From positions 3,690,001 to 3,722,000 of the forward strand of contig NC_010296.1 of the NCBI RefSeq assembly GCF_000010625.1: 32,000 nt of DNA. Reading direction: 5' to 3'. The notes beneath the pieces were generated by a model. That model saw nothing but the letters and a program-made list of their open reading frames with translations, was not told the DNA's origin and ran no database searches. This DNA comes from Microcystis aeruginosa NIES-843 (lineage in GTDB: Bacteria > Cyanobacteriota > Cyanobacteriia > Cyanobacteriales > Microcystaceae). Position numbers and translations under genes: made by a program. This document shows positions 1,855 through 26,453 of this stretch, piece by piece; position 1 is the first letter of the stretch, and the number at the start of each line of letters is the position of its first letter.

Positions 1855-2433
1855 ATTTTTTGACAATGAATATTCAGTATAAGTAGTCTGGAGATAAGTT
1901 TAGACCAATCTTCCATTATACTCTACTTTGCCCCGAAATATCACTAGGTCTAAGATTAGGACAATTCCCGCTCTACAAGCTAAAAACAGCCTTATTTTAG
2001 CCGATAACTGACGGCTAGGAGCTTAAATTATTGTAAATCCTGATATTTAAATAACCCCATAAATTTCGATTTGCGTCCGTGTTCCTTAATTAAACTTTCC
2101 CGATAAGTTTGCCATTCTTCCCGTCTTCCCGACATATAAAAGGCATTACGAGCTTTTTTTAGCCATTTAATCGCTTCTTCGTAGCGATCAGCCTTTTTTT
2201 CGTCGAGTATCTTTTCCGCAGGAGGACACGCGCGCTCGATCACCCAGTTAGGATCGACGGTAGCAGCCGCATCCATTATCCGCCAAATTAGGTGAGACTG
2301 CACATAGGAATTATCAGAAACGACTTTAATTGCATCTCTAACTAAATTTTCGTGGAGAAATATATCAATTTTAGCCTCTAGGGAACGTCCACCGCTAAAC
2401 TCGCGCAAGTAATCTAACAAGTCTAATTTTAAA

Positions 2434-2620
2434 GGTTCTTCGTTACTTGGTATGGTTCGATAGGGGGTCATAAATCGACTAAATCCTTATCTGGTAAGAG
2501 ACTTAATTGATTAGTTCGCTCTAGATCAAAAATAATTGACAAAAATCGCTAAATGCCTTTCTATATAAGGGTTCCATCCCTTATAACCCCCGTCCATTGC
2601 ATAACAATTACCGAAGAGCC
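2434..2620. mobile_element. 187-bp MITE with ISL3-type termini, copy 1
   Basis: Starts GGTTCTTCGTTACTTGGTATGG and ends CCATTGCATAACAATTACCGAAGAGCC. Flanked by a perfect 8-bp direct duplication ATTTTAAA (2426..2433 and 2621..2628). Identical by eye over all 187 bp to 26044..26230. Confidence 0.9.
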
Positions 2621-2707
2621 ATTTTAAATCGGGCCAATCTTCCCCCGCTAAAGACTCAATTTTTTGGTAATGGGAAAAGGAAGGTTGGTCTTGAAATGCC
2701 TTAATTC

Positions 2708-4129
2708 GGCTCTTCGGGAATTGTTATGCAAATAATTAACTTAAAATAAAATTCGATGAGAGCGCCTACGCTCAAAAGTAGCTGAAATCCATACAGGGAA
2801 GGACTTAAGGCACAAACAGGTTAATACCAAAAGATAGACAATTGAGTTAAGATTTGATATAATAGCCAAAAACGAGATTATTTTACTTATGATACTTGAC
2901 AAATTTTTGAACCTAAAAGGAACCTGTATTCAAGGCTATCTACACCTAGAAAATATCGGTATAGTTTGCCGAATCGAATCGAAAAATCAAAAAGCAACCT
3001 GTCCTCGTTGTGGGTTAGAGAGCGATAAACTCCACCAAAATCATCGACATTTAGTCAAAGATTTACCAATCTCAGGTCAACCAGTATACCTACAAATTAA
3101 TCGTCGTCAATTTAAGTGCGATAATTGTCAGAGACCCTTTAGCGAAGAGTTAGATTTTGTCGCCAAGAAACGAACCTATACGAAAAGACTAGCCGCAAAT
3201 ATACTCGAACAATTAAAAGAAGGAGATATTTTAAATGTTAGTCGAATAAATGACGTAACGGAAGAAGAGATTCAAAGAATGATAGAGGACATCGCCGAAG
3301 AAATTACAGAGCCAGACCTATCGGAATTAAAAAGACTAGGAATTGATGAAATCGCTCTAGTCAAAGGACAAAAAAATTACTGTGCGGTTTTAGTAAATTT
3401 AGATACGGGAAAACTAATAGCTATTCTAGAGAAGCGAACACAAGAAGAGTTGAGAGAAACGCTTACGGGCTGGGGAAAAGAGGTGTTAGAGCAAATTGAA
3501 GAAGTGAGCATAGACCTTTGGTTGCCTTATAAAAATTTGGTGAAAGAATTGATGCCATCGGCCGAAGTAGTCGCCGATAGATTCCATGTAATGAAACAAA
3601 TTAATCAAGAGTTAGACGAACAGAGAAGAGCGGAAAAAAGAGCCGTAGAAGCGCAGAAAAATAAAAAACAGAAAGCGGAAAAAGAAGCGAAGCTAGAAGT
3701 TTTAAAGCGAAGTAAATATAGCCTGTTAAAAAATGAAGAAGATTTAACGGAACCCCAAAAAATTAAACTAGAAGCTATCAAAGAAAAATTCCCAAATTTG
3801 AAAAAGATGCAGGAATTAAAGGAAGAATTAAGAACGATTTATGAAACCTCAAAGAATCCGACAGAGGGACTGCTATCCATCTCGGAATGGTTGGCAAAAT
3901 CCTCCAGTGTTTTTACCAAGAGTTGTCAAACAATCCGAAACTGGTTTGGAGAAATCATTAGTTATTTTGAGCGAAGGACAACGAATGGGGTGGTCGAGGG
4001 AATCAACAATAAACTTAAACTAATAAAACGGAGAGGCTATGGCTTTAGAAACTTTCGGAATTTTTGGGTTAGAAGTATGTTATCTTGGCATCTTGTATGT
4101 TGATTTAGCATAAAGGGTAACGAAGAGCC
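2708..4129 (+). mobile_element. ISL3-family insertion sequence (1422 bp)
   Basis: Imperfect TIRs: GGCTCTTCGGGAATTGTTATGCAAAT (left) and GGCTCTTCGTTACCCTTTATGCTAAAT (right end, reverse complement). Perfect 8-bp TSD CTTAATTC (2700..2707 and 4130..4137). One transposase ORF. Confidence 0.9.
2889..4103 (+). CDS. ISL3-family transposase (404 aa, apparently intact)
   Basis: N-terminal zinc-finger pairs CPRCG...CDNC. Motifs LGIDEIALVKGQKNY, VADRFHVMKQ and NGVVEGINNKLKLIKRRGYGFRNFRNF are typical of ISL3 DDE transposases. Confidence 0.9.
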   Translation: MILDKFLNLKGTCIQGYLHLENIGIVCRIESKNQKATCPRCGLESDKLHQNHRHLVKDLPISGQPVYLQINRRQFKCDNCQRPFSEELDFVAKKRTYTKRLAANILEQLKEGDILNVSRINDVTEEEIQRMIEDIAEEITEPDLSELKRLGIDEIALVKGQKNYCAVLVNLDTGKLIAILEKRTQEELRETLTGWGKEVLEQIEEVSIDLWLPYKNLVKELMPSAEVVADRFHVMKQINQELDEQRRAEKRAVEAQKNKKQKAEKEAKLEVLKRSKYSLLKNEEDLTEPQKIKLEAIKEKFPNLKKMQELKEELRTIYETSKNPTEGLLSISEWLAKSSSVFTKSCQTIRNWFGEIISYFERRTTNGVVEGINNKLKLIKRRGYGFRNFRNFWVRSMLSWHLVC

Positions 4130-6519: not shown

Positions 6520-6881
6520 AGTGATAATTCTTCCAGAGCTTTAGTGCTGTGAAAAATTCCCCCGTGGTCTGCTTTTATCGAAAAAATCGGGTCTAAAACC
6601 TCGCCTTAAGACGAAAAGTTTTTGGAGCGGGACATAAATCCCCATTACAAAACTAATGGCGGCTTGATAACCGCCCCCTGAACGGTTAAAATGAGATTAT
6701 GAGTGATTCGGAGAAAAAAATATGTCAACGCCCTACGATGACTGTTTTGACCACATTACTGATCGTCCAACGAAATTCTGTTCGCCAGCAATGGTTACAG
6801 ATGGTTTGCGGAGGTTTATTTGTTGCCGATGTTAGGATACTACTATTAGCGACGCTTAAGCGAAACCCAACCGCACTAAAC

Positions 6882-6970
6882 CTCACATTTTAGCATATAT
6901 TTCGTAAATGTGCTAATATTTAACAGTAAAGCCGTCGTTCTACGACGGGGTTTCAGACCCAAAATTTTCG
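6882..6970 (-). repeat. Solo copy of the left-end (LE) segment of the TnpB element, copy 1
   Basis: About 95 percent identical to 19124..19211: CTCACATT.TAGCATATATTTCGTAAATGT.CTAATATTTAACAGTAAAGCCGTCGT...ACGACGGGGTTTCAGACCCAAA(A)TTTTCG. Includes the 7-bp-stem hairpin. Abuts ATGAA at 6971. Confidence 0.8.
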
Positions 6971-7207
6971 ATGAAAGCAACGATCCGAAACGTTAAAATT
7001 AGCGAAATCCCCACAGCGATCGAGCAGTTAGGTTTGTCCGCTCATGCGTGTGTCGATTTCACAATCGAGAATCATGAGATGACGGGAAACGAACAGGAGG
7101 AAACCACCCAAGCCTTGATGGAAGTGGTGAATGAAATTCGTGCTTATGCCAAGAGTCAGGGATTGACTGATGAGAAGTTGGAAGAGCTTTTAGTAGATGA
7201 ATCGTGA
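6971..7207 (+). CDS. Putative antitoxin partner of the downstream PIN toxin (78 aa, acidic C-terminus)
   Basis: Small ORF overlapping the PIN gene by 11 nt (7197..7207), the usual type II TA arrangement. No family recognised. Confidence 0.55.
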   Translation: MKATIRNVKISEIPTAIEQLGLSAHACVDFTIENHEMTGNEQEETTQALMEVVNEIRAYAKSQGLTDEKLEELLVDES

Positions 7208-7613
7208 ACCCATTGTTATCGATACGAACGTCTTTATAAGCTTCGCCTTAAGCAGTACGACAACACCAGCTTTGGCTGTAGAATACGCGATTAATAACTT
7301 TATTATTCTGCAAAGTCCCGCAACCATAGGCGAGTTGGTCACAAAACTTCTTCTCCCAAAGTTCGAGAGGTACATTACACTGGAGCAGCGCCGACAACTG
7401 CTAGTAAGAATTTTGGAAATTTCGCTGCTGATTAGACCTACTGACCACACTGAAATTTGCCGAGATCGAGACGATAATAAATTCCTAAATCTGGCAACCA
7501 GTGGGGAAGCACGCTATCTCATTACTGGTGACAATGATTTGCTTATACTGCAACGCTATGGGAAAACAGAGATCGTTACACCAAGGGAATTTTTAAAAAT
7601 TGTTCGGCGGTGA
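7197..7613 (+). CDS. PIN-domain toxin (PIN_3 / TIGR00305-like)
   Basis: N-terminal IVIDTNVFISF and C-terminal RDRDDNKFLNLATSGEARYLITGDNDLL supply the conserved acidic PIN residues. Confidence 0.8.
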   Translation: MNREPIVIDTNVFISFALSSTTTPALAVEYAINNFIILQSPATIGELVTKLLLPKFERYITLEQRRQLLVRILEISLLIRPTDHTEICRDRDDNKFLNLATSGEARYLITGDNDLLILQRYGKTEIVTPREFLKIVRR

Positions 7614-10267: not shown

Positions 10268-12793
10268 CTAAATCATCACTATTTCGCCCTGGTAATGTTC
10301 GACGAAATATTGGACACGATGACGATATTCTTTAATTGTCCGATCGACCCATTCCCGCTGCTCACTGTTAGCATAGATATGCACTAAAGGTTCTCCGGCA
10401 TCGGGTAAAATCAATACCCAGTCATCATTAAGGGGATTAATCACCTTCACCCCATCGATTAACTCTAGATTATCGGTAGCGTGAGTTTCCACCAGATAGC
10501 GCATCAAGGATCCCTTGACTTTCCAAGGACAACGCACCGCCGTATTCTTATTGTAAATGCGCGGTAACTCGGCCCGCACCTGAGCTAGAGAACGTTCCTG
10601 AATGGTTAACATCTCCAAAAGTTTCGCCACGCTGAACATGGCATCGAAACCGGGATGTAATTGCGGAAAAATAAAGCCAGTTTGCCCAGAGCCTCCTAAA
10701 ACCACATTAGGATTGGTTTGACATCCTTCCATTAAAGCGCTAGGACTGGCTTTTGTCCGCACCACCCGGCCATCGTGACGACGTGCGATCTGTTCCACGG
10801 CACTAGAAGCATGAACCGGCACTACCACTGTACCGCGAGGATGGGCGGTCAGAATTGTATTCACCATTAGAGCAGTTAATTGTTCCCCGCGAATCGATAA
10901 ACCACTCTCATCGACGAGGACTAATTGTTCCCCGTTGGCCGAAACTTGTACCCCTAAGTTCGCTTTCAGGGCCTCCACCACATGGCCCAATTGATGGATT
11001 AGTAACTCTCTTTCCTGCATGGAAAGGGCATTCTGACGTAAACTGGCATTGAGAACCACGGCATCACAGCCAAATTTGGCCAGTAATTCTGGTAAAATTG
11101 CCCCTGAGACTCCGTAGGCGTAATCAATGACGATTTTGGAACCACTATTGCGAATAGCCTCTACATTTAGCTGAGTTTCAAAGGTTTTGCGGTAATTATC
11201 GAGAATATCAGCCGGATAGGACATACTGCCGATTTCCTGCATTCCCACCCGTCGCAGATCTTCTTTGAAATAGGCCCCTTCGATTTTCTTTTCCCTCGCT
11301 TTGGAAACATTAATCCCTTTTTCGTCTAAAAACTCGATTAAGAGAAAATCCGGGCGATCGGGATGAATACGAACGTGAATGCCACCGACTACGTTTAATT
11401 TAGCCACTAAAGTCCTGGAAATCGGTAAAGCATTCGCTTGTAGGTTTTGGATATTAACTCCCACGGACATTAAACCGGCAATCAGCGATCGACTGACCAT
11501 GCGCGAGACACTACGTTGATCCCGGGAGACGATTACCGTTGACCCCGGTTTCAGAATGGAACCGTAGGATGCCCCCAGTTTAACGGCGAATTCGGGCGTG
11601 ATATCGATGTTAGCGAGGCCCGATACTCCTCGTTGACCAAAGAGGTTTTTATGGGCAGTATTTCCCCAAATCAGGTTAATATTGAGGATGGCTCCCGATT
11701 CGATCTGTTTACTCGGCCAGACTCTGACCCCGGAATTGATCTGCGCTTCTTCTCCCACGATCGATAATTGTCCGATCACCGCACCTTCGTGTACCTGGGC
11801 CCGTCGATCGATTCTGGTTCCCCTAGCGATCGTACAAGCGGCTAAATTGACCTCATCCCCGATCACCACACCATTCCAGAGGATGGGACGTTTCAGATCG
11901 GAACCAGCACCGATGGTGACATTATCGCCGATAACCGAACCCCTCTCGATCAGAACATTTGCACCAACGCGGCAATGATTGCCGATCATGGCCGGGGCCT
12001 CAATGTGGGCGCTAGGATCGATATAGGTATTAGTACCGACCCACACCCCGGGGGATTTTTCTCGATAGGGAAATTCTAGGTTAACTTTGCCGGATAAAGC
12101 GTCGTATTGCGCTTCTCGGTAGGCCTCCAGATGACCGACATCGCACCAATAACCATCGGCCACATAACCATACATAGGTTCGCCCCTTTGCAGCAGCAGC
12201 GGAAACAAATCTTTAGAAAAGTCGGCTTCTTCTTTGTAGGGGAGATAATCAAGGACTTCTGGTTCGAGAATATAGGTTCCGGTGTTGACAGTATCGGAAA
12301 AAATCTCGCTGGTGGATGGTTTTTCGATAAAACGGCGAATTCTGCCTTCTTTGTCGGTAATCACTACCCCAAATTCGATCGGATTGGCAACCCGCGTCAG
12401 GACGAGGGTTGCTTTCGAGTTTTTACTTTTATGGAATGCGATCGCTTTTTGCAGGTCAAAATCGGTGATACTATCGCCACTAATCACCAGAAAGGTATCA
12501 TCTAACCATTCGGCAATATTTTTCACACATCCTGCGGTGCCTAGGGGTTGATCCTCCTCCACAGCGTAGGTGATTTTTACCCCAAAGTCGCTGCCGTCTT
12601 GAAAGTAGTCGCGCATGACATCGGGGAGATAGTGCAGGGTGGTGATAATTTCGGTAATGTCATGCTTTCGCAGTAAATTAATAATATGTTCGGCGATCGG
12701 ACGGTTGAGAATCGGAACCATCGGTTTGGGAAGATCACAAGTAAGCGGACGTAATCTTGTCCCTGAACCACCTGCCATTAATACCGCTCGCAT
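10268..12793 (-). CDS. Bifunctional sugar-1-phosphate nucleotidyltransferase / phosphohexomutase (the type annotated as mannose-1-phosphate guanylyltransferase in cyanobacteria), 841 aa
   Basis: N-terminal [18 protein letters not shown] nucleotidyltransferase loop. A central hexapeptide-repeat region is followed by a C-terminal phosphogluco/phosphomannomutase-like half. All internal antisense ORFs in the track are taken as spurious. Confidence 0.8.
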
Positions 12794-13879
12794 AATTTCC
12801 TCCCAAGGCTATCTTTTCGCCGTTTTTAAATAGTTTTTTCAAATTCTGGCTTTAGTTTCCCGACCTCGATCGAGCCAGTTCCTAACCGGCATTCTAACAC
12901 CGTCCCCCCGATTCAGAACAATATTTTCTTTTCCCAAGTCGGCAAAACCAAAGCTTAAAATAGGAGATGTGAATTCTCTAAATTCAAGGATGAGATGGCA
13001 TGAGACTGGTTATTTTTATCTTATAGTTATTTCAAATAAGAACGAGACACTAGGCGACACAATAAGTACGAATAATTTCATCAAGGGGTGTCCCCACAGG
13101 AGCATACATTCTTGCCCTCTTTAATGCACTAAAATCATGTTCGATATCATTTAAATCAGGAGAGTATTTTGGCAAAAACACGACCTGATGACCTGCTTCC
13201 TCTACCAGTTGTTTAATGACTGTCTTCCGATGAATTGGTGCATTATCCATAATTAATACTGATGTTATGGTTAGAGAGGGCAACAAATATAAAGATAACC
13301 ACCCTTCAAAACCTTCGGCATTCAGGCTTCTCGTAAATACCATCGGTGCAATAAAGTCTTTTTTTCCCTTTCTTCTACCAGCGACAAGGTTCTCTCTTTT
13401 TCCTCGTTTTCCTTGTCTATCTCCAAAGACTTTCTTCCCTTTTTTTGACCAAGCATAAAAACAGGCTTGAAATTCTTCAAACCCTGACTCATCAATAAAT
13501 ACAAGGCTTTCACTTCCATATATTTTAATCAATTCTCTCAGCACTCTGTAGTATTTCATTCTTTCTTCTCGGTTTCTTTCTCTATAACGAAGTTCCTTCT
13601 TTTTTCTGGTAACTTTCATGTTTTTTAAGGCATAGCAAATGGCACTTGGTCTCACTCCAAATTTCTCGGCTCTGTCTCTTAATCTTGCCTCGGGATTTTC
13701 TTGGACATCTTTTGACAGTGCTTTCCAGTCCAGCTTTCTCTGACGGTGTTTTACCTTTGTTGCTTCCAGTTTTTCCCTACCTAGCCATCTATATATCGTC
13801 GCTCTTCCTATATTAAATAGAGCGGCGGCTTTGGTTATGCTTCCCCCATTCTCTACATAATCGATTACTTTTTTTCTCC

Positions 13880-14969
13880 GCCAATTCAAAAATGAAACGC
13901 ATCAACCTCAAGAGTTGACAAAGAAAGGCTCATCAGGTACTGTCTGATCATTAACAAAAACAAATCAGACCCAAAAATGAGCCACCAACATCTTAACATA
14001 GAACAAAGAAACTTGCTCTACCAACTTAGTCAGGAGGGAAATTTATCTCAACGGCAAATGGCCGTCTGGCTCGGATGTCATCAAAGCACAATATCACGGG
14101 AATTAAAAAGGAATCAAAGTTCCCTTGGCTGCTATCTACCTGACACAGCACAAGCTCAAAGCGAGACAAGGCGAAAAAATGCCAAACAACCCTTTAAAAA
14201 TGTCAGCGAGTCAGCCTTAGAGTTGGTCAAAGAAGGATTGAAAGATTATCATAGTCCCGAACAAATAGCAGGTCGTCTGAAAAGAGCCAGTCAAGAATCT
14301 CTCAGTCACGAAACCATCTATCAAATGATCTATCAGAACTATCACGGATGTGGAGAGTACCAGAAATATTTACGCCGGGGGCTTTGTCAAAGAAAGAGTC
14401 GAGGCGGAGCAAAAAGTAAGCGTGGAGGGATTCCAGGGCGTGTAGATATCAGCGAGCGACCAGTAATTGCTGACCAGAAAACTGAAATCGGTCATTGGGA
14501 AAGTGACACAATGATTGGAGGCAATCATCTAGGAGTTCTCGTTACTCATGTAGACAAGGCCTCGAAATTTCTAGTAGCAGGATTAGCCAAAAACAAAACC
14601 GCATCGGAAATCAATAGAGTCACAGAAAAACTTTTTCAAGAGATTCACCCTGACAAAAGAAAAACCTTTACTTGTGACAACGGCAAAGAATTTTGTGGAC
14701 ATCAAGAGTTGAGTCAGAAATTGGGAGCAGATTTTTATTTTGCTACTCCTTATCATTCTTGGGAGAGGGGATTAAACGAGCATACTAATGGACTATTAAG
14801 ACAATTTTTTCCCAAGGGAACGAATTTTAAAATTGTTAAGCCAGAGCAGGTGGAAATAGCCGTAAACTTGATTAACAATCGTCCTCGAAAATGTCTTGAC
14901 TATCGTACCCCGAATGAGGTATTCTATAAAGGTAGATCAGACAGTGATGCAATTCAGACTTGAATTGGC
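13880..14969 (+). mobile_element. IS30-family insertion sequence (1090 bp) nested in IS630
   Basis: TIRs: GCCAATTCAAAAATGAAACGCATCA (left) and GCCAATTCAAGTCTGAATTGCATCA (right, reverse complement). Flanked by CC on both sides (2-bp TSD). Confidence 0.85.
13977..14963 (+). CDS. IS30-family transposase (328 aa, apparently intact)
   Basis: HTH N-terminus (QRQMAVWLGCHQSTISRELKRN). DDE region HWESDTMIGG...CDNGKEF...YHSWERGLNEHTNGLLRQFFPKGTNF. Confidence 0.9.
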   Translation: MSHQHLNIEQRNLLYQLSQEGNLSQRQMAVWLGCHQSTISRELKRNQSSLGCYLPDTAQAQSETRRKNAKQPFKNVSESALELVKEGLKDYHSPEQIAGRLKRASQESLSHETIYQMIYQNYHGCGEYQKYLRRGLCQRKSRGGAKSKRGGIPGRVDISERPVIADQKTEIGHWESDTMIGGNHLGVLVTHVDKASKFLVAGLAKNKTASEINRVTEKLFQEIHPDKRKTFTCDNGKEFCGHQELSQKLGADFYFATPYHSWERGLNEHTNGLLRQFFPKGTNFKIVKPEQVEIAVNLINNRPRKCLDYRTPNEVFYKGRSDSDAIQT

Positions 14970-15440: not shown

Positions 15441-15630
15441 TAAACAGTGAAAAGATACTGGGAAACTGCTATTTATAGCGCTTTTCACGTTATTGAGGTA
15501 TCGACCAGTTTTGCCAACAAAGGACTTAACCTCCTTAAACAGTGAAAAGAGACCGGGAAACTGCTATTTATAGCGCTTTTCACGTTATTGAGGTATCGAC
15601 CAGTTTTGCCAACAAAGGACTTAAGCTCCT
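15441..15630 (+). repeat. Tandem duplication, 2 x 95 bp, starting 25 bp after the tRNA
   Basis: Unit TAAACAGTGAAAAGA.AC.GGGAAACTGCTATTTATAGCGCTTTTCACGTTATTGAGGTATCGACCAGTTTTGCCAACAAAGGACTTAA.CTCCT occurs at 15441 and 15536, with 3-4 differences. Each unit has an 8-bp inverted repeat GTGAAAAG/CTTTTCAC. Confidence 0.85.
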
Positions 15631-16294: not shown

Positions 16295-16501
16295 TTTGGT
16301 AAACTCCTAATAGACTAATTTCTTGTCCCCCACCGATGCCCGTCGGATGGCGGAATAATACTAAATCCGTTGAGTATAGGCTATATATCAGGACAGCCGA
16401 ACGGCAAAAGGCAAAAGGGGGAATAAATAACCAGTTTTTAATAACCGGATTTAGTATCACTCAAAACTTAAAACTGATCACTGATCACTGATAACTGCTA
16501 T

Positions 16502-17050
16502 TTATCTTCTCATTCTGCCCTTAATTTGATACCAAAGCCTTCTTAAACGTAGATCGAGAGAAAAACCCCGACGGGTGGGAATAACAATCGTGCCACCGAT
16601 GCGATCGTGGAAAGCGCGGTTCAATTGCTCATCACCGATCGCCATACCACAATCGGCGAAAAGGGGCGAAGATAATAAAATCAAGCTTAAAGGATTGCCA
16701 AAAAAAGTATTTAACCCTACCATCATTAAAGCTGCCCCGCCACCAGCGATCGCCTCTCGTTTGCTTAACTCCAAAATTCCGGGTAAACGCTGAAGTTGTA
16801 GATCGATGATCTTCATATCCAGGGCCCAACGTCCTAAACTCTGACCCTGATTCTGCGCTACCAATAACACCCGCAAACACCACCAAATCAGGAGAAAAAG
16901 GAAAAATTGTAGTACAGGCGAACTGTTAGCAAAGGAGCTTAAAAACCAGATCGAGGCAAAGTCGATCAGGAAAGCATAGGCACGACGATCTAAGGGAATT
17001 TTCGGAAATTTTTGCGGTAGATTATCTTCAGGTGGGATCGGGTAAACCAT
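16502..17050 (-). CDS. RDD-family membrane protein
   Basis: N-terminal RRAYAFLIDF pattern followed by hydrophobic segments and a second conserved D (FHDRIGGTIV), as in RDD domains. Confidence 0.65.
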   Translation of the reverse strand: MVYPIPPEDNLPQKFPKIPLDRRAYAFLIDFASIWFLSSFANSSPVLQFFLFLLIWWCLRVLLVAQNQGQSLGRWALDMKIIDLQLQRLPGILELSKREAIAGGGAALMMVGLNTFFGNPLSLILLSSPLFADCGMAIGDEQLNRAFHDRIGGTIVIPTRRGFSLDLRLRRLWYQIKGRMRR

Positions 17051-17053
17051 AAA

Positions 17054-17233
17054 AGATCTCTTGTAAAAATCAAAAATTGTTGTTAGGGTTAGGAGTCAGT
17101 AGCCAGTAGTCAGTAGTCAGGAGAATTAAGAATGAATGATAATCAGTTAAATGGTCTATTTACAGACTTTATCCCATTTAATCCTTATTTTTGCCGTTTT
17201 TGAACCCTGAAAAATTAATTATGCAAGAGATTT
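17054..17233. mobile_element. About 180-bp MITE with termini related to the IS5-like element at 23393..24340
   Basis: Left end AGATCTCTTGTAAAAATC compares with IS end AGATCTCTTGCAAAAGTAATC. Right end TTATGCAAGAGATTT compares with IS end TTATGCAAGAGATCT. The interior holds AGTCAGT-type heptamers. A further TIR-like TTTTTGCAGGAGATAT lies at about 17385..17400. Confidence 0.55.
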
Positions 17234-17464
17234 AAAGTAAATTCTCGGAAAAATCCTGCGGTTTATCTTCTACTCTAATCGGGAAATTGGCAATTCTAGG
17301 ATAGTTGTCCCTTGTCTTTTTTCTCCCCCTGTCTCGGAGTCTTCTGTCTGGGAGTCTGCTTACCTAACCGAAGATTTTTGATTTTTGCAGGAGATATAAT
17401 TATTAATCGACTCGGAGATCTAAGCTACCATTGAGCAAAGGTAGCCCAGAATACAGGGATAATC

Positions 17465-17824
17465 ATGGAGCAAGATTCATTAACAACGGAGGTTATTCTA
17501 ACCCATCCGCGGCAAAGTTTGGGAGAGATCCAATTGGATTGGATGCCACAACCGGGTAATTATTTGGCCTTAAAAGGACAAACCTACGCAGTTTTGGAAC
17601 GTCACCACCAGTATCAATACAAGATTGGTGGCTATTGTTTACGCAAAATTTCCCTTTATGTACAAACTGCTCCCACTCCTAACGAAAAAAGTTTGATTGA
17701 AGGACGTTGGGTGATGGGGGATGCTAGTTGTCGTTTTAACGCCAGATCTGAACTGTTGCGCTGTGCGATTAACCCCCCAGGTCCCTGTCAAGATTGTCGT
17801 TTTTACGAAGCTATTAACCCTTAA
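17465..17824 (+). CDS. Conserved hypothetical with a C-terminal four-Cys motif (paralog of 28744..29049; possibly the cyanobacterial DUF6464 family)
   Basis: GDASCRFNARSELLRCAINPPGPCQDCRFYEA aligns with GDLSCRFNAYSPHLRCAVNPTGPCEGCRQYEA in the second gene. Confidence 0.7.
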   Translation: MEQDSLTTEVILTHPRQSLGEIQLDWMPQPGNYLALKGQTYAVLERHHQYQYKIGGYCLRKISLYVQTAPTPNEKSLIEGRWVMGDASCRFNARSELLRCAINPPGPCQDCRFYEAINP

Positions 17825-17891
17825 AAGAGCCTTTTTCGGCAATAATCTGGCTATTTTTCCCCTAGCTAACCACTATATTGATCAATCGCCT

Positions 17892-19211
17892 TTGACATCC
17901 TCACCGCCGTAAACGGACGGTGATTCCCAAACCTCACGATTTAGGTTTCTGCTTCTTTCCCTTGCGGGGTTCCGCACCTGCCTTAACAGATTTACTCTGT
18001 TCTGGTCTTATGGTCGCTCTACAGACTGACACCGCAAGCCCTGCGGCCAAAATATTTTTACTGGCGTTAATATCTCGGTCATGGTGTGTCCCACAGTCTG
18101 GACAATCCCACTCTCGAATATTTAACGGCATCTTTTCGACAATATGCCCGCAATTACTACACCTTTTAGAGCTAGGAAACCATCTATCTATTTCGATGTA
18201 ATTTCTTCCATACCAACGGCATTTATAGGCTAATTGTCGGGTGATTTCTCCCCAGCTTACGTCAGATATTGCCTGAGATAACTTGGGGTTTTTGACCATA
18301 TTCTTGACGGCTAAATTCTCAACCACAATCGTTTGGTTTTCACGAACTAATTGAGTGGTTAGCTTGTGTAAATGGTCTTTCCTGCTATCGGTGATTTGAG
18401 CGTGAATTTTGGCTACTTTGATTTTTGCCTTTTCTCGATTCTTTGAGTCTTTCTGTTTTCTAGAAAGGCTTTTTTGGGCCTTTCGCAGTCTCCGATAATG
18501 CTTTTTAAAATGCTTGGGATTAGATACTTTATCGCCATCGCTGGTAATCACGAGGCTACTAATTCCTAAGTCAATTCCGATGGCTTTATCTGTTACTGGT
18601 AATGGCTTAATCGTTGGGTCATCAAATCTTATTGAGATATGCCAACGTCCAGAAGGATGTAATCTGACTGTTACTGTGCTTGGTTCACAGCTTTCTGGTA
18701 TTTGTCTTGACCATCGAATAGGTAAGGGTTCTGTGCATTTGGCTAAATAGATTTGTTTGTCTTTGAACTTAAAAGCAGATTTGGTAAATTCGGCACTTCC
18801 TCCCTGATGTTTTTTCTTAAAGTTAGGATACTTAGTACGACCAGCAAAGAAATTAGTAAAAGCTGTTTGTAAATGTCTTAAGCCTTGTTGTAAAGGTACA
18901 CAGCTAACTTCATTGAGAAAGTCTAATTCTTCTTGCTTTTTCCACTCGGTCAACATTGAAGAAGTTTCAGTATATCCTACTCTTTCTTGTCTTTCATACC
19001 AAGCTTGTGTTCTGAGATGGAGTGCCTTATTGTAAACCAATCTTACACAGCCCAAAGTGCGCCGCAATAGCGACTCTTGTTCGGGTGTGGGGTAAAATCG
19101 GAACGAGTAGGCTTTTTCCATGTCTCACATTCTAGCATATATTTCGTAAATGTTCTAATATTTAACAGTAAAGCCGTCGTAGAACGACGGGGTTTCAGAC
19201 CCAAATTTTCG
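17892..19211 (-). mobile_element. IS200/IS605-family element carrying only tnpB (no tnpA); boundaries inferred
   Basis: LE side: the hairpin CCGTCGT-TCT-ACGACGG (minus strand) lies about 20 nt inside the point where three copies stop being alike (19211/19212). RE side: imperfect hairpin 17901..17923 with one bulged base. The proposed end after TCAA (17892) is by analogy with IS608 geometry only. Confidence 0.7.
17934..19121 (-). CDS. tnpB: TnpB (OrfB, IS1341-type RNA-guided nuclease), 395 aa
   Basis: N-terminal FRFYPTPEQ. RuvC triad contexts IGIDLG, VVENL and HDRDINA are all present. Zinc finger CSNCG...CPDCG. Confidence 0.9.
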
Positions 19212-20369
19212 ATGAATCATCCTTACTCTTGGATCGAGGATAGCTTAAAAACCCTCCATCGGGCCAATTGGTATCGAAGGGTTAAAACCATTCAAGGCCG
19301 GGGCGGAGCCGTTATAGAATTAGAGGGTCGATCGCTGATTAATTTTGCCAGTAATGATTATCTGGGATTAGCAGCCGATGAAAGAATGATCGCGGCAGCC
19401 ATAGCAGCAACACAACGCTATGGAACTGGAAGCACCGGCTCGCGTCTATTAAGTGGACACCGAGATCTTCATCGAGACTTAGAATTAGCGATCGCATCCT
19501 TTAAAAATAGCGAAGACGCGATCGTTTTTAGTTCGGGATATTTAGCCAATTTGGGGACAATTACCTGTTTAGTGGGGCAGAAAGACCTGATTTTAGGCGA
19601 TCAATACAATCACTCTAGCCTCAAAAATGGAGCCAAGTTAAGCGGTGCCACGGTGAAAGAATACCGGCACAATAGTCTCGAAGACTTAGAAAATCAGTTA
19701 TTAGCCCACCGTCATCACTATCGTCATTGTTTACTGCTCACTGATACAGTGTTTAGTATGGATGGGGATATCTGTCCCCTGGCGGGAATTCTCGCTCTAG
19801 CCGAGATTTATAATTGCATGGTTTTGGTGGATGAGGCCCACGCTACCGGGGTTATGGGGGAAAATGGCACAGGTTGCGTGGAATATTGTGGTTGTCAGGG
19901 ACGGGAATTAATTCAGATGGGAACCCTGAGTAAAGCTTTGGGCAGTTTAGGGGGATATGTGACCGGAAACGCCAAAATTATCGATTTTATCCGCAATCGC
20001 GCCGCCACCTGGATTTATACTACCGGTTTATCCCCCGCCGACACCGCCGCTGCTAGAATGGCTTTAGAGATTATTCGTCTGGAACCGGAACGTCGCCAAC
20101 GCTTACACCAAAATATTAATTTTGTCAAGAGTAAATTAAATAATCTTAATATATTGCCTTCAGAAGCGGCGATTTTATGTTTACCGGTAGCCAATCCGGG
20201 TCAAGCCCTAGAATTATCGCAAAAACTGCTAGAAAAAGGGATTTTTGCCCCCGCCATTCGTCCTCCTACCGTTCCCACCAGTCGTCTGCGGTTTACTGCC
20301 ATGGCCACCCATAGCCTCGCCCATCTAGAGGTTCTTGTCCAGTCTATTGGCGAGTCTTTCCCCACATAG
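19212..20369 (+). CDS. bioF: 8-amino-7-oxononanoate synthase
   Basis: [22 protein letters not shown] and the PLP-lysine context [13 protein letters not shown]. The track ORF begins at 19077, but its first 45 codons are the IS left end. MNHPYSW at 19212 is the plausible start. Confidence 0.85.
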
Positions 20370-20405
20370 GGAAAAAGTTTTTTCTGGGAGCAGGGAGCAG
20401 GGTGT

Positions 20406-20432
20406 GGGGAAGTGGGGTTTGGGGAAGTGGGG
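20406..20432 (+). repeat. G-run array GGGGAAGTGGGGTTTGGGGAAGTGGGG (G-quadruplex-type motif)
   Basis: Four GGGG runs separated by 3-4 nt, preceded by GGGAGCA GGGAGCA GGGTGT. Overlaps the outer box of attC-like element A. Confidence 0.6.
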
Positions 20433-20514
20433 AACGGTAAAGTGCAGCGGCGGCAGACAACCTTAGCATCACCACTGGGAGCTCCCGACCGTCCGCTCCA
20501 GCGCCTTGTTATGC
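20429..20514 (-). other. attC-like structured recombination-site candidate A (86 bp)
   Basis: Minus strand: GCATAAC-aaggc-GCTGGAGCGGACGG-(32 nt)-CTGCCGCCGCTGCAC-tttacc-GTTCCCC. Starts 10 nt after the stop of the PIN gene. Same segment lengths as element B. Confidence 0.5.
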
Positions 20515-20524
20515 TGCGGCGGGT

Positions 20525-20932
20525 TTAGGGACTCTTGAAAGGATTGACAATTTTCAGCCCATCAATGTCTGAATACCCAAAGTCTTCTGTATAGAGAGTT
20601 TCGACGTTTGCTTCCAAACAAGCAGCAACCACCATCGAATCCCAATGAGACAAACTAAAACGCCTGATCAAGTCCTCAGCACGATTAATCACAGCCCAAG
20701 TTGGCAAAGCTGTGTACCAAACCTGTTGCAAATCTCGAATGTACTGATAGGCTTGCGCTCTGTCATACCCAAATGGCTCAAGTTTGCGGCTTGCCGCTAA
20801 ATATTCGCAGGCAACCTGCCAAATTAAAACTCCCTCTGTCAGATTAGCTACTAGAGAAGCTGCGATTGCCTGCTTACTAGGATAACGCGAATCATTGACG
20901 TAAATTATACTTTGCACGGCTACAACTTGCAT
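20525..20932 (-). CDS. PIN/VapC-like toxin, orphan (no antitoxin gene upstream) and possibly degenerate
   Basis: The C-terminal HWDSMVVAACLEANVETLYTEDFGY fits VapC. At the N-terminus the usual first Asp position reads AVQSIIYVND. The upstream space is occupied by a MITE. Confidence 0.6.
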   Translation of the reverse strand: MQVVAVQSIIYVNDSRYPSKQAIAASLVANLTEGVLIWQVACEYLAASRKLEPFGYDRAQAYQYIRDLQQVWYTALPTWAVINRAEDLIRRFSLSHWDSMVVAACLEANVETLYTEDFGYSDIDGLKIVNPFKSP

Positions 20933-20959
20933 TTTTTACTCAAGGACAATAATATAGTT

Positions 20960-21147
20960 GGTTCTTCGTTACTTGGTATGGTTCGATCAGGGGGCATAAA
21001 TCGGCTAAATCCTTATCTGGCAAGAGACTTAATTGATTAGCTCGTTCTAGATTGAAAACAATTGGCAAAAATCGAAGCAATGTCTTTCTATATAATGGTT
21101 TCATCCCTTATAACTCCCGTCCATTGCATAACACAAACCGAAGAACC
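20960..21147. mobile_element. 188-bp MITE with ISL3-type termini, diverged copy 2, without TSD
   Basis: Same ends (GGTTCTTCGTTACTTGG ... CCGAAGAACC) and roughly 85-90 percent identity to copies 1 and 3. The flanks ATATAGTT and GCATATAT do not match. Confidence 0.8.
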
Positions 21148-21224
21148 GCATATATTTCGTAAATGTTCTAATATTTAACAGTAAAGCCGTCGTAGAACGA
21201 CGGGGTTTCAGACCCAAATTTTCG
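21148..21224 (-). repeat. Solo TnpB-element LE segment, copy 3, truncated by the MITE
   Basis: GCATATATTTCGTAAATGTTCTAATATTTAACAGTAAAGCCGTCGTAGAACGACGGGGTTTCAGACCCAAATTTTCG is identical by eye to 19135..19211. Followed by ATGAAT. Confidence 0.8.
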
Positions 21225-21356
21225 ATGAATGCCCCGCAAGCAACTTCAAGCCACTGTCCTAACCGAGGACTTGCCGCGTAACGCCCGAACTCACCCGCCG
21301 CTATTGATTTTGGCTAATCCAAAAATAATATAACACAGGTCGGCTGCAGTGATTTC

Positions 21357-21665
21357 TTAGACAGTCGCTACTCGATTATTTAACCAACGCTTCAAGGATT
21401 TTTGACTTTCCCCTGATGGTTGGCCAAGAATCAAGTTTTTAGTGCTAATGTCTTCATCTAGTTGATTCCAATGGATTCCACTGCCACCAGCGAGCAAGCG
21501 ATAATCATTGCGCTTCTCAGTTGAGCCATGCAGGAGCCGAGGATACCATGCCAGGGGAACAGATATAGTGCGCCCATCAGACAAATCTACACTGAGTGTG
21601 TCATCTGTGATGGCCAATTGCTGAATAGCCAATGTTTCAAATACTTCATTCGTTAAAAAAGTCAT
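21357..21665 (-). CDS. DUF2442-family protein (102 aa)
   Basis: Pattern ...LSVDLSDGRTISVPLAWYPRL...G.GIHW..LDEDIS is typical of DUF2442. It overlaps the remnant of its usual DUF4160 partner. Confidence 0.65.
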   Translation of the reverse strand: MTFLTNEVFETLAIQQLAITDDTLSVDLSDGRTISVPLAWYPRLLHGSTEKRNDYRLLAGGSGIHWNQLDEDISTKNLILGQPSGESQKSLKRWLNNRVATV

Positions 21666-25459: not shown

Positions 25460-26043
25460 GGAGACAGCTATTAGGGATCGGATTTGAGTTTTCAGTTCAC
25501 TGTTTCCTCACACCAGAAGTCTGACGGAGTAGTGGCTTAGATGTGTAATTAATTTTGCTTAGGTACTTATCTATATCCTTACTTTTAATCATGATACCAA
25601 TACTCACCCCCTGCTGAATGTCAGACACATTCTCATACTTTCTAGCGGAATTATCGCCATTAGCCGGTAGTAGTAGTAAGGAAACCCAACACACAATAAT
25701 TGTTATGATTTCTGGTAATGATTTGGTAGTAGTGGCGTAGCCCTCTTGCTTATCTGGTATGAATTGTGTAAAATATTTATGAATAAAAATAATTGGAACC
25801 CGCTCAGTCTTTAAACCTCTAGCTTGATCATGACTTTTCTGATAAATATCTTTTTCTGGCTCCTGTCTGGCTTACTCAAATATCAGTCTAGCACCGAACA
25901 AAGTACCCCCTTCACCTCTATTCCCCTGTCCTAATTGTGGTTCTCACCATACTATCAAGAATGGTTCTATTCATAATGGAAAACCCAAACGTCAAGGTAA
26001 AGAGTGTGGTCGTCAGTTGGTGATCAATCCCACTAATAAAACC

Positions 26044-26230
26044 GGTTCTTCGTTACTTGGTATGGTTCGATAGGGGGTCATAAATCGACTAAATCCTTAT
26101 CTGGTAAGAGACTTAATTGATTAGTTCGCTCTAGATCAAAAATAATTGACAAAAATCGCTAAATGCCTTTCTATATAAGGGTTCCATCCCTTATAACCCC
26201 CGTCCATTGCATAACAATTACCGAAGAGCC
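26044..26230. mobile_element. 187-bp MITE with ISL3-type termini, copy 3, inside IS1
   Basis: Identical to 2434..2620. Perfect 8-bp TSD ATAAAACC (26036..26043 and 26231..26238). Confidence 0.9.
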
Positions 26231-26453
26231 ATAAAACCGTCTCTGACGAAACCAAACAATTAATTGATAAACTCTTGCTCGAACGAATTTCCTTGCGAGG
26301 AATTGCTAGAGTAACAGGGGTAAGTTGGTCATGGTTACAAAACTATGTCAACAATAAACTGGCGGCTGTCCCCCGTCAAATAAAGGTTTCGGACAAACCA
26401 AAAGGTAAATTGGTTAGAGAATGTGATGAGATGTGGTCTTGGGTTTTTTCTAA

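Follow-up and report, generated by a model that had tools for sequence, protein, structure and literature searches.

A TnpB-only insertion sequence of the IS200/IS605 family at the start codon of bioF in Microcystis aeruginosa NIES-843

In Microcystis aeruginosa NIES-843 the bioF gene, which encodes 8-amino-7-oxononanoate synthase, begins exactly where a stretch of DNA carrying a tnpB gene ends, and the locus raises the question of what this DNA is, where it starts and stops, and how bioF can be transcribed with its own upstream region on the far side of it. The window analysed is the whole stretch of 32,000 nucleotides from position 3,690,001 to 3,722,000 of contig NC_010296.1 (assembly GCF_000010625.1), and all positions are counted from its first letter. 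A sequence-only reading of the window had described a TnpB-only insertion sequence (IS) lying against the bioF start codon. The analysis places the DNA, with a probability of about 0.9, as a complete, non-autonomous IS of the IS200/IS605 family, IS1341 type, in the Microcystis chromosome. It is a typical representative of a transposon family already known, agreeing in every testable trait with IS200/IS605 elements, with the IS1341 group and with TnpB/omega-RNA systems. The parts on which this rests are the following.

17892..19211, minus strand: whole inserted element, 1,320 bp, IS200/IS605 family, IS1341 type, TnpB only (empty alleles and blastn ends)
19212..19215, minus strand: target and presumed target-adjacent motif (TAM), TCAT (147 junctions and empty sites)
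19122..19211, minus strand: left end, 90 nt, with terminus CGAAAATTTGGGTCTGAAACC and hairpin CCGTCGT-TCT-ACGACGG at 19190..19174 (alignment of 67 left ends)
17934..19121, minus strand: tnpB, 395 aa, intact, with D184, E268 and D350 and with C321, C324, C340 and C343 (Pfam and alignment with ISDra2)
17892..17895, minus strand: right-end cleavage tetranucleotide TCAA, the end of the conserved GGATGTCAA (right ends compared between copies)
17872..17891, minus strand: presumed guide AGGCGATTGATCAATATAGT, antisense of the native bioF upstream region (position from the IS200/IS605 TnpB rule)
19212..20369, plus strand: bioF, 385 aa, intact (Pfam Aminotran_1_2; the exact protein occurs in many Microcystis assemblies)

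Boundaries of the element and empty sites

An exact look-up of the 385-aa BioF protein led to ten loci that were fetched, and in nine of them (L001, L002 and L004-L010) the element is absent. The empty alleles of other Microcystis read ...AATCGCCT/ATGAATCATCC, the slash marking the point of insertion, and the window holds exactly 1,320 bp (17892..19211, minus strand) between the two halves, so that the occupied locus reads ...GATCAATCGCCT/TTGACATCC...(1,320 bp)...AAATTTTCG/ATGAATCATCC. The empty junction is ...CTATATTGACAAATCGCCT/ATGAATCATCC in L002, L009 and L010, ...GATCAATCGCCC/ATGAATC in L006 and ...AAATCACCC/ATGAATC in L001, L004, L005, L007 and L008; the endings ...CGCCC/ and ...CACCC/ are also found among the empty bioF alleles. 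Comparison of empty with occupied alleles leaves both boundaries unambiguous and reveals zero duplicated bases. The alignment to empty bioF sites, which the sequence-only reading had proposed as a check, thus fixed both ends at the positions it had predicted, 17892 and 19211, and placed ATGAA at the junction; the pre-insertion junction it had reconstructed is correct to the base.

The same ends recur in dozens of independent copies. In blastn searches with the 1,320 bp, the alignments to more than 40 independent copies end at element bases 1 and 1320, and the 50 empty sites that were rebuilt from the flanks are all seamless. On the element strand the order is TCAT/CGAAAATTTGGG...(left end)...tnpB...GGATGTCAA/AGGCGATTGATC. 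The element consists of a 90-nt left end, 1,188 nt of tnpB, which is the sole open reading frame (ORF), and a 42-nt tail; most full-length relatives have the identical length and layout, and a few are longer. There are no terminal inverted repeats, and the left and right ends differ, each with a subterminal imperfect hairpin. Every right end examined finishes with GTCAA, nearly always as GGATGTCAA, and the DNA beyond is unrelated among copies, which fits a guide drawn from the flank. The start of the guide had been predicted as AGGCGATTGATC, a position that the alignment of empty alleles upholds.

Insertion of the top strand directly 3' of TCAT and free of duplication is what marks single-strand 'peel-and-paste' transposition, carried out by a Y1 (HUH) TnpA, which here must act in trans. 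The arrangement resembles that of IS608 of Helicobacter pylori, in which the right end is likewise cleaved after TCAA, a target tetranucleotide lies 5' of the left end and the end hairpins are imperfect; such hairpins at both ends of the window element are consistent with recognition by a Y1 transposase. The two differ in that IS608 targets TTAC and has tnpA and tnpB in the same orientation, whereas the window element has no transposase.

Target motif, omega-RNA scaffold and TnpB

The window contains three left ends, all on the minus strand: that of the full element from 19211 downward, one at 21224..21148 and one at 6970..6882. The similarity among them breaks off at one common base, with TTCAT in front of each, as had been noted from the sequence. 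TTCAT is thus true of these three copies, but as target and likely TAM, as further suggested, it is too specific for the family, in which the core is TCAT. Among 147 distinct left-end junctions, selected for a recognisable left end, TCAT is present in all 147, whereas position -5 is T in 61 (41%), A in 32, C in 31 and G in 23. Because the fifth base is T in only 41%, the target core is TCAT with at most a mild preference for T at -5, and the 5-nt target TTCAT was rejected.

The 67 left ends that were aligned have in common the terminus CGAAAATTTGGGTCTGAAACC, the hairpin, and GCTAnAAT after TG at 7-8 nt before the tnpB ATG. The arms of the hairpin co-vary (CGTCG with CGACG, CGCCG with CGGCG and CGTCC with GGACG), and the hairpin was also found by a hairpin and promoter scan of the left end. 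The window element has the promoter-like TTAGAA-N18-TAGAAT with TG (TGCTAGAAT, 19137..19129), 7 nt before the tnpB ATG. By its sequence the left-end consensus reads as an extended -10 box, with a tnpB mRNA that would be nearly leaderless.

At the other end the last part of tnpB and the tail appear to encode a structured RNA. The last 240 nt of 47 non-redundant copies were aligned and folded with RNAalifold, and two helices were added by eye; all pairings listed are on the minus strand and, unless another source is given, come from the 47-sequence alignment.

17892..18074, minus strand: omega-RNA scaffold region, of which 17934..18074 is also the last 141 nt of the tnpB ORF (stop included)
18047-18042 with 18036-18031: helix
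18026-18023 with 18008-18005: helix
18017-18012 with 17978-17974: helix
18001-17996 with 17990-17985: helix
17945-17938 with 17933-17926: helix, the tnpB stop TGA (17936..17934) lying mostly in the loop
17922-17916 with 17908-17902: right-end hairpin, bulged (compensatory substitutions across copies)
18074-18069 with 17899-17894: long-range pairing

In the seven helices 95.6% of the cells of the alignment can pair, against 35-43% in controls with the partners slid by 1-3 columns. Compensatory changes occur in sixteen pairs and amount to 138 cells, against 9-25 in the slid controls, and none of 500 column shuffles reached the observed pairing values. The covariation check suggested at the outset is therefore positive, the structure of the 3' end being backed by pair changes, and it supports the prediction that the 3' region of about 180 nt is a conserved omega-RNA scaffold into which the 3' end of tnpB extends.

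The protein has the Pfam domains HTH_OrfB_IS605, OrfB_IS605 and Cas12f1-like_TNB. Its best natural match among solved structures is the TnpB of ISDra2 (8bf8, 8exa, 8h1j; E=7e-74, residues 2-366), and in the sequence alignment its GIDLGI, VVENL and HDRDINA fall on the catalytic motifs of ISDra2. The RuvC-like D-E-D triad and the CxxC...CxxC zinc finger are both present, and the residue positions in this alignment bear out the intact nuclease triad and finger reported before. An exact look-up of the window TnpB protein returned no record. The protein is a close homolog of ISDra2 TnpB, and by this analogy RNA-guided nuclease activity is predicted for it.

The likeness to ISDra2 of Deinococcus radiodurans is not confined to the protein, with its homology over residues 2-366 and the same D/E/D and zinc finger: in both elements the omega-RNA overlaps the 3' end of tnpB and extends to the right end, insertion is duplication-free and 3' of a short motif, and there are hairpins at both ends. 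ISDra2, however, has its own tnpA and targets TTGAT, whereas the window element has no tnpA and targets TCAT.

In the mechanism that these parts suggest, the omega-RNA transcript would continue past ...GTCAA into the flank AGGCGATTGATC..., which would serve as the guide. By analogy with ISDra2 and the ISGst elements of Geobacillus, the complex of TnpB and omega-RNA would cut an element-free site carrying TCAT and a match to the guide, and an occupied chromosome copy would then be the template for a repair that brings the element back. Microcystis is presumably polyploid. The guide bases directly follow TCAT in the empty alleles, with one mismatch over the first 16 nt in L006, two in L002 and four in L001.

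The working model is that of the Geobacillus elements (Meers et al., bioRxiv 10.1101/2023.03.14.532601), in which TAM and target site are one and the same, the guide comes from the DNA flanking the right end, the donor site once emptied is cut again by the nuclease, and non-autonomous derivatives depend on help in trans for their movement. The window element belongs to a different clade and host, and its association with start codons, treated below, is not described in that study. The literature searched gives TTCAT as the TAM of an IscB (ISGst5) and not of a TnpB, TnpB2 using TTTAT (Meers et al., 10.1101/2023.03.14.532601), and no report was found there of TCAT as a TnpB TAM, nor of the TCAT target, the RNA structure or a start-codon bias for this family. 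A fully delimited TnpB/omega-RNA element with a defined target, a guide and natural empty alleles is a ready test case for TnpB homing, and a relative of ISDra2 TnpB with a different 4-nt motif may interest collectors of compact editors with new TAMs.

A guide complementary to the DNA just upstream of the native bioF start also suits another explanation, namely that the TnpB has been domesticated as a regulator of bioF in the manner of TldR, the guide binding the bioF upstream region. As in TldR systems, a TnpB-family protein here has a guide beside the upstream region of a host gene, and the purifying selection on individual copies described below points the same way. TldR, however, has lost the RuvC residues and the transposon ends, whereas the window element keeps both, and a domesticated TnpB of the TldR type was excluded on this ground. 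The element is moreover polymorphic between strains, and the same architecture recurs in phages and beside numerous unrelated genes. Where bioF is occupied, the element splits the guide match from any TCAT, and there is therefore no TAM-adjacent target at its own locus. Domestication at bioF is accordingly regarded as highly improbable.

Relatives, transposase and recent mobility

When one genome per species was scanned, 273 relatives came to light. The best 80 of the 273 comprise Microcystis proteins with 91-97% identity and those of many other cyanobacteria with 69-90%, and a single genome often has many copies. The core of the left end, used as query against metagenomes, yielded 120 further loci. 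Multiple copies in cyanobacteria and tnpB as the only gene are features shared with the IS1341 group. The absence of tnpA is the defining trait of that subgroup and does not exclude an element from IS200/IS605. In Planktothrix, IS200/IS605 elements listed as ISMae41-like have transposase genes about 1,170 nt long (PMC9366434), a length matched by a Planktothrix relative of the window TnpB (L033, 89% identical); judged by gene length only, the family may already bear the ISfinder name ISMae41 (M. aeruginosa).

No Y1 transposase gene was found by tblastn, with an IS608 TnpA as query, in or beside the element in the window and about 200 loci, in agreement with the earlier description of a TnpB-only element without tnpA. 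A tnpA match in L035 belongs to a separate, unrelated IS200-like element with different ends. As the family has no tnpA, the element is non-autonomous and some TnpA must act in trans. A divergent pair of tnpB (gp031) and Y1 tnpA (gp032) genes is carried by phage Ma-LMM01 (NC_008562 24416-26129). Its putative ends, ...TTAT/CGAAAATGGGG... and ...GGGAATC-hairpin-AGCGTCAA/, resemble those of the window element, and on the resemblance of these putative ends this type of tnpA/tnpB pair offers a lead to a candidate helper acting in trans.

The state of the copies bears on the rival view that the element is a dead relic, with a decaying tnpB of no current function that was left at bioF by an old event. 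The copies are indeed old and diverged: 30 full-length Microcystis-type copies differ in a star-like manner at pairwise identities of 92-96%, and seven of the 30 have lost the ORF. The copy at the same bioF site in strain NIES-102 has been broken by a second IS, and no transposase is at hand. On the other hand 23 of the 30 retain an intact tnpB, and the ratio of nonsynonymous to synonymous substitution (dN/dS) between Microcystis copies has a median of 0.11 at a synonymous divergence (dS) of 0.23, which shows that the protein is under selection. The copy at bioF in the window has kept its ORF, its catalytic residues, its two ends and every RNA helix. The relic view also fits poorly with the signs of recent movement, which are the presence or absence of the element at bioF in different strains, one pair of copies with 99.6% identity at two sites in one genome, the copies in phages and a plasmid, and short derivatives. 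It is therefore considered improbable, and the placement as a complete element with an intact tnpB is retained.

Full copies occur in the Microcystis phages MaMV-DH01, MaMV-DL01 and MaMV-DL02, with 95% protein identity and the flanks ATCAT/ and /CAGTG; each phage record gave three tblastn matches to TnpB, of which the best was examined. The copy in Cyanophage MaMV-DH01 (OP394178; positions 1910-3230 of locus L211) is complete, with 93% nucleotide and 95% protein identity, and a further complete copy lies on the Microcystis plasmid NZ_CP025929 (79194-80515). Microcystis myoviruses and the plasmid are likely vehicles for the horizontal spread of the element.

The metagenomes contain derivatives of 157-353 bp without tnpB that share both ends with the element. 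Such short elements are found in L093, L114, L116, L120, L121, L125, L144, L150, L169, L171, L176, L189, L195, L197 and L205; their left ends read TCAT/CGGAAATTTTGGGTCTGAAACC... and their right ends ...AGCAGAAACTTAAATCGTGAGGTTTAGGAATC-hairpin-GAGGATGTCAA/. Internal deletions set them apart from one another, but each retains part of the omega-RNA-like 3' region, and they may carry their own guides for a TnpB supplied in trans.

Copies within one Microcystis genome (L011-L032, L054, L064, L092, L119, L121, L132, L180 and L201) are as diverged as those of different genomes (dS about 0.23). Since dN/dS is nevertheless about 0.11, selection seems to bear on single resident copies as well as on any master copy, which is unexpected if TnpB can be shared in trans.

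Several points weigh against the placement as a complete TnpB/omega-RNA element. Rfam gave no matches (E<=1) for 16500..21500 or for the short derivative L121, and no cognate TnpA was identified. Expression of the omega-RNA and cleavage activity are predictions, and the TAM of the protein is inferred from the insertion sites. Finally, the only candidate in the left end for a promoter directed outward, TTTCCA-17-TATATT at 19115..19143, comes from a scan that found 6 such sites against 3.9 expected in shuffled sequence, and its TATATT is missing from distant relatives that likewise lie against start codons.

Insertion at bioF and at other start codons

The BioF protein aligns residue for residue with that of Escherichia coli (21-377 with 21-378 of 1bs0), and owing to this colinearity the ATG at 19212 is the native start of bioF. 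On the plus strand ATGA at 19212..19215 is the bioF start codon together with the first base of codon 2. Both the empty and the occupied alleles confirm the proposal that the complement of the target supplies the bioF ATG, and the empty alleles confirm that the native upstream DNA has been moved away by 1.3 kb. The upstream neighbour is:

17465..17824, plus strand: DUF6464 gene (Pfam and comparison with empty alleles)

The gap between this gene and bioF is 47-67 bp in most empty alleles and 190 bp in L006. In the window the DUF6464 gene and any native bioF leader or promoter are now separated from the bioF ATG by the 1,320 bp insert. It follows logically that transcription of bioF would come from inside or through the element, either by read-through from upstream or from a promoter within it. 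Read-through is plausible because several of the sites at start codons, bioF included, lie 38-70 bp behind a co-directional upstream gene. The outward site in the left end was not adopted as the source of bioF transcription, given the chance-level scan and the lack of conservation.

The one occupied allele among the ten fetched loci is that of strain NIES-102 (L003; M. viridis NIES-102-type assembly AP019314, 2365-5000), in which the element lies at the same bioF site. It is interrupted within the omega-RNA region by a second IS of about 1.3 kb, and the remaining tnpB gene call is 206 aa. The two elements are 94.3% identical, with the differences evenly spread, and are no closer to each other than random copies are, whereas their flanks are 98.4% and 99.5% identical. 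In an orthologous pair used for comparison (L102 and L148) element and flank are both about 99.5% identical. Simple common descent of the two occupied bioF alleles is thus unsupported; either the site was hit twice, or an old insertion has had its flanks homogenised later by recombination.

Because TCAT is complementary to ATGA, an insertion can bring the left end right up to a start codon, tnpB and the gene then pointing away from each other. How often this happens was assessed for the 50 rebuilt insertion sites, a start codon being the first ATG in an ORF of 100 codons or more, which makes for crude gene calls. Start codons account for 16 of the 50 insertions, intergenic DNA for 27 and genes for seven, while the other 1,947 TCAT/ATGA sites in the same DNA fall at 80 start codons and into 598 intergenic and 1,269 genic positions. 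Start codons are thus over-represented relative to intergenic sites (odds ratio 4.4, p=4e-5), and genic insertions are depleted about 11-fold.

These counts bear on the possibility that the position at bioF reflects a choice of site, or selective retention, at ATGA, with the left end replacing the native 5' region. For six of the abutted ORFs, Pfam places profile position 1-2 at residues 1-10, which marks a true N-terminus; these encode DnaN, adenylate kinase (adk), a dihydrolipoamide-dehydrogenase-type flavoprotein, prephenate dehydratase, PyrF and CobB. Such housekeeping genes must still be expressed, and the element therefore does not silence them. Two of the three left ends in the window also adjoin a start codon, namely those at bioF and at a 78-aa ORF at 6971. 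A trivial part of the effect, however, is the coincidence of the TCAT and ATGA motifs together with the loss of insertions that disrupt genes, and much of it follows from these two. Outside exact abutment the intergenic insertions show no orientation bias toward neighbouring gene starts (8 against 12), the left ends gave no conserved promoter directed outward, and the gene calls are crude. A preference for start codons beyond the motif, or an advantage in retention there, is accordingly put forward tentatively, at odds clearly below even.

A bolder form of this idea, which we consider rather unlikely, is that a TnpB-only cyanobacterial family has adapted to start codons, its left end or transcription crossing it giving a workable 5' leader. 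If so, dnaN, adk, pyrF and bioF would stay expressed, and an element at a start codon would be hard to lose, as imprecise deletion would harm the gene. A TnpB with a locus-specific guide would in turn convert leftover empty chromosome copies in a polyploid cell. The idea would explain why about a third of the copies lie on start codons, why purifying selection (dN/dS 0.11) still acts on single old copies and why one bioF site holds two diverged lineages in two strains. The pattern, if real, would show how such elements limit the burden on their host and remodel the 5' regions of its genes.

The two other left ends in the window are fragments.

21148..21228, minus strand: solo left-end fragment, 77 nt, 100% identical, TCAT at 21228..21225 (window comparison; also in L003)
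6882..6974, minus strand: third left-end fragment, 89 nt, 93% identical, TCAT at 6974..6971 (window comparison)

The solo fragment is preceded by TTCAT, and its likeness to the element stops at 21148, exactly where a repeat at 20949-21148 starts. This repeat is 65% similar to 2423-2622 and 26033-26232 and covers a small ORF upstream of a 135-aa gene (20525-20932), whose counterpart of identical length in L006 has a weak PIN hit. The fragment looks like a left end that was truncated by, or has recombined with, a toxin-antitoxin-like cassette. In L003 it lies at 10400-10476.

The fragment at 6882-6974 has no tnpB or right end behind it. The ATGA complementary to its TCAT opens the 78-aa ORF (6971..7204), which precedes and overlaps a PIN_3 toxin gene (7197-7613, plus strand). 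The loop of its hairpin is flipped (AGA as against TCT), as it also is in L024 and in the short element L114. Across about 370 bp it is faced by a left-end-like sequence of a related family at 6575-6603 (plus strand), TTAT/CGAAAAAATCGGGTCTAAAACCTCG, whose TTAT flank agrees with the target presumed for the IS605-type element of phage Ma-LMM01.

The window also contains further mobile DNA, namely an ISL3-family transposase gene at 2889-4103 (plus strand) and an IS630-family transposase gene at 13050-13889 (minus strand). The repeats at 2423-2622 and 26033-26232 form a 200-nt pair with 98% identity, and the intergenic DNA at 15441-15630 consists of two tandem copies, 97% identical, of a 95-nt unit.

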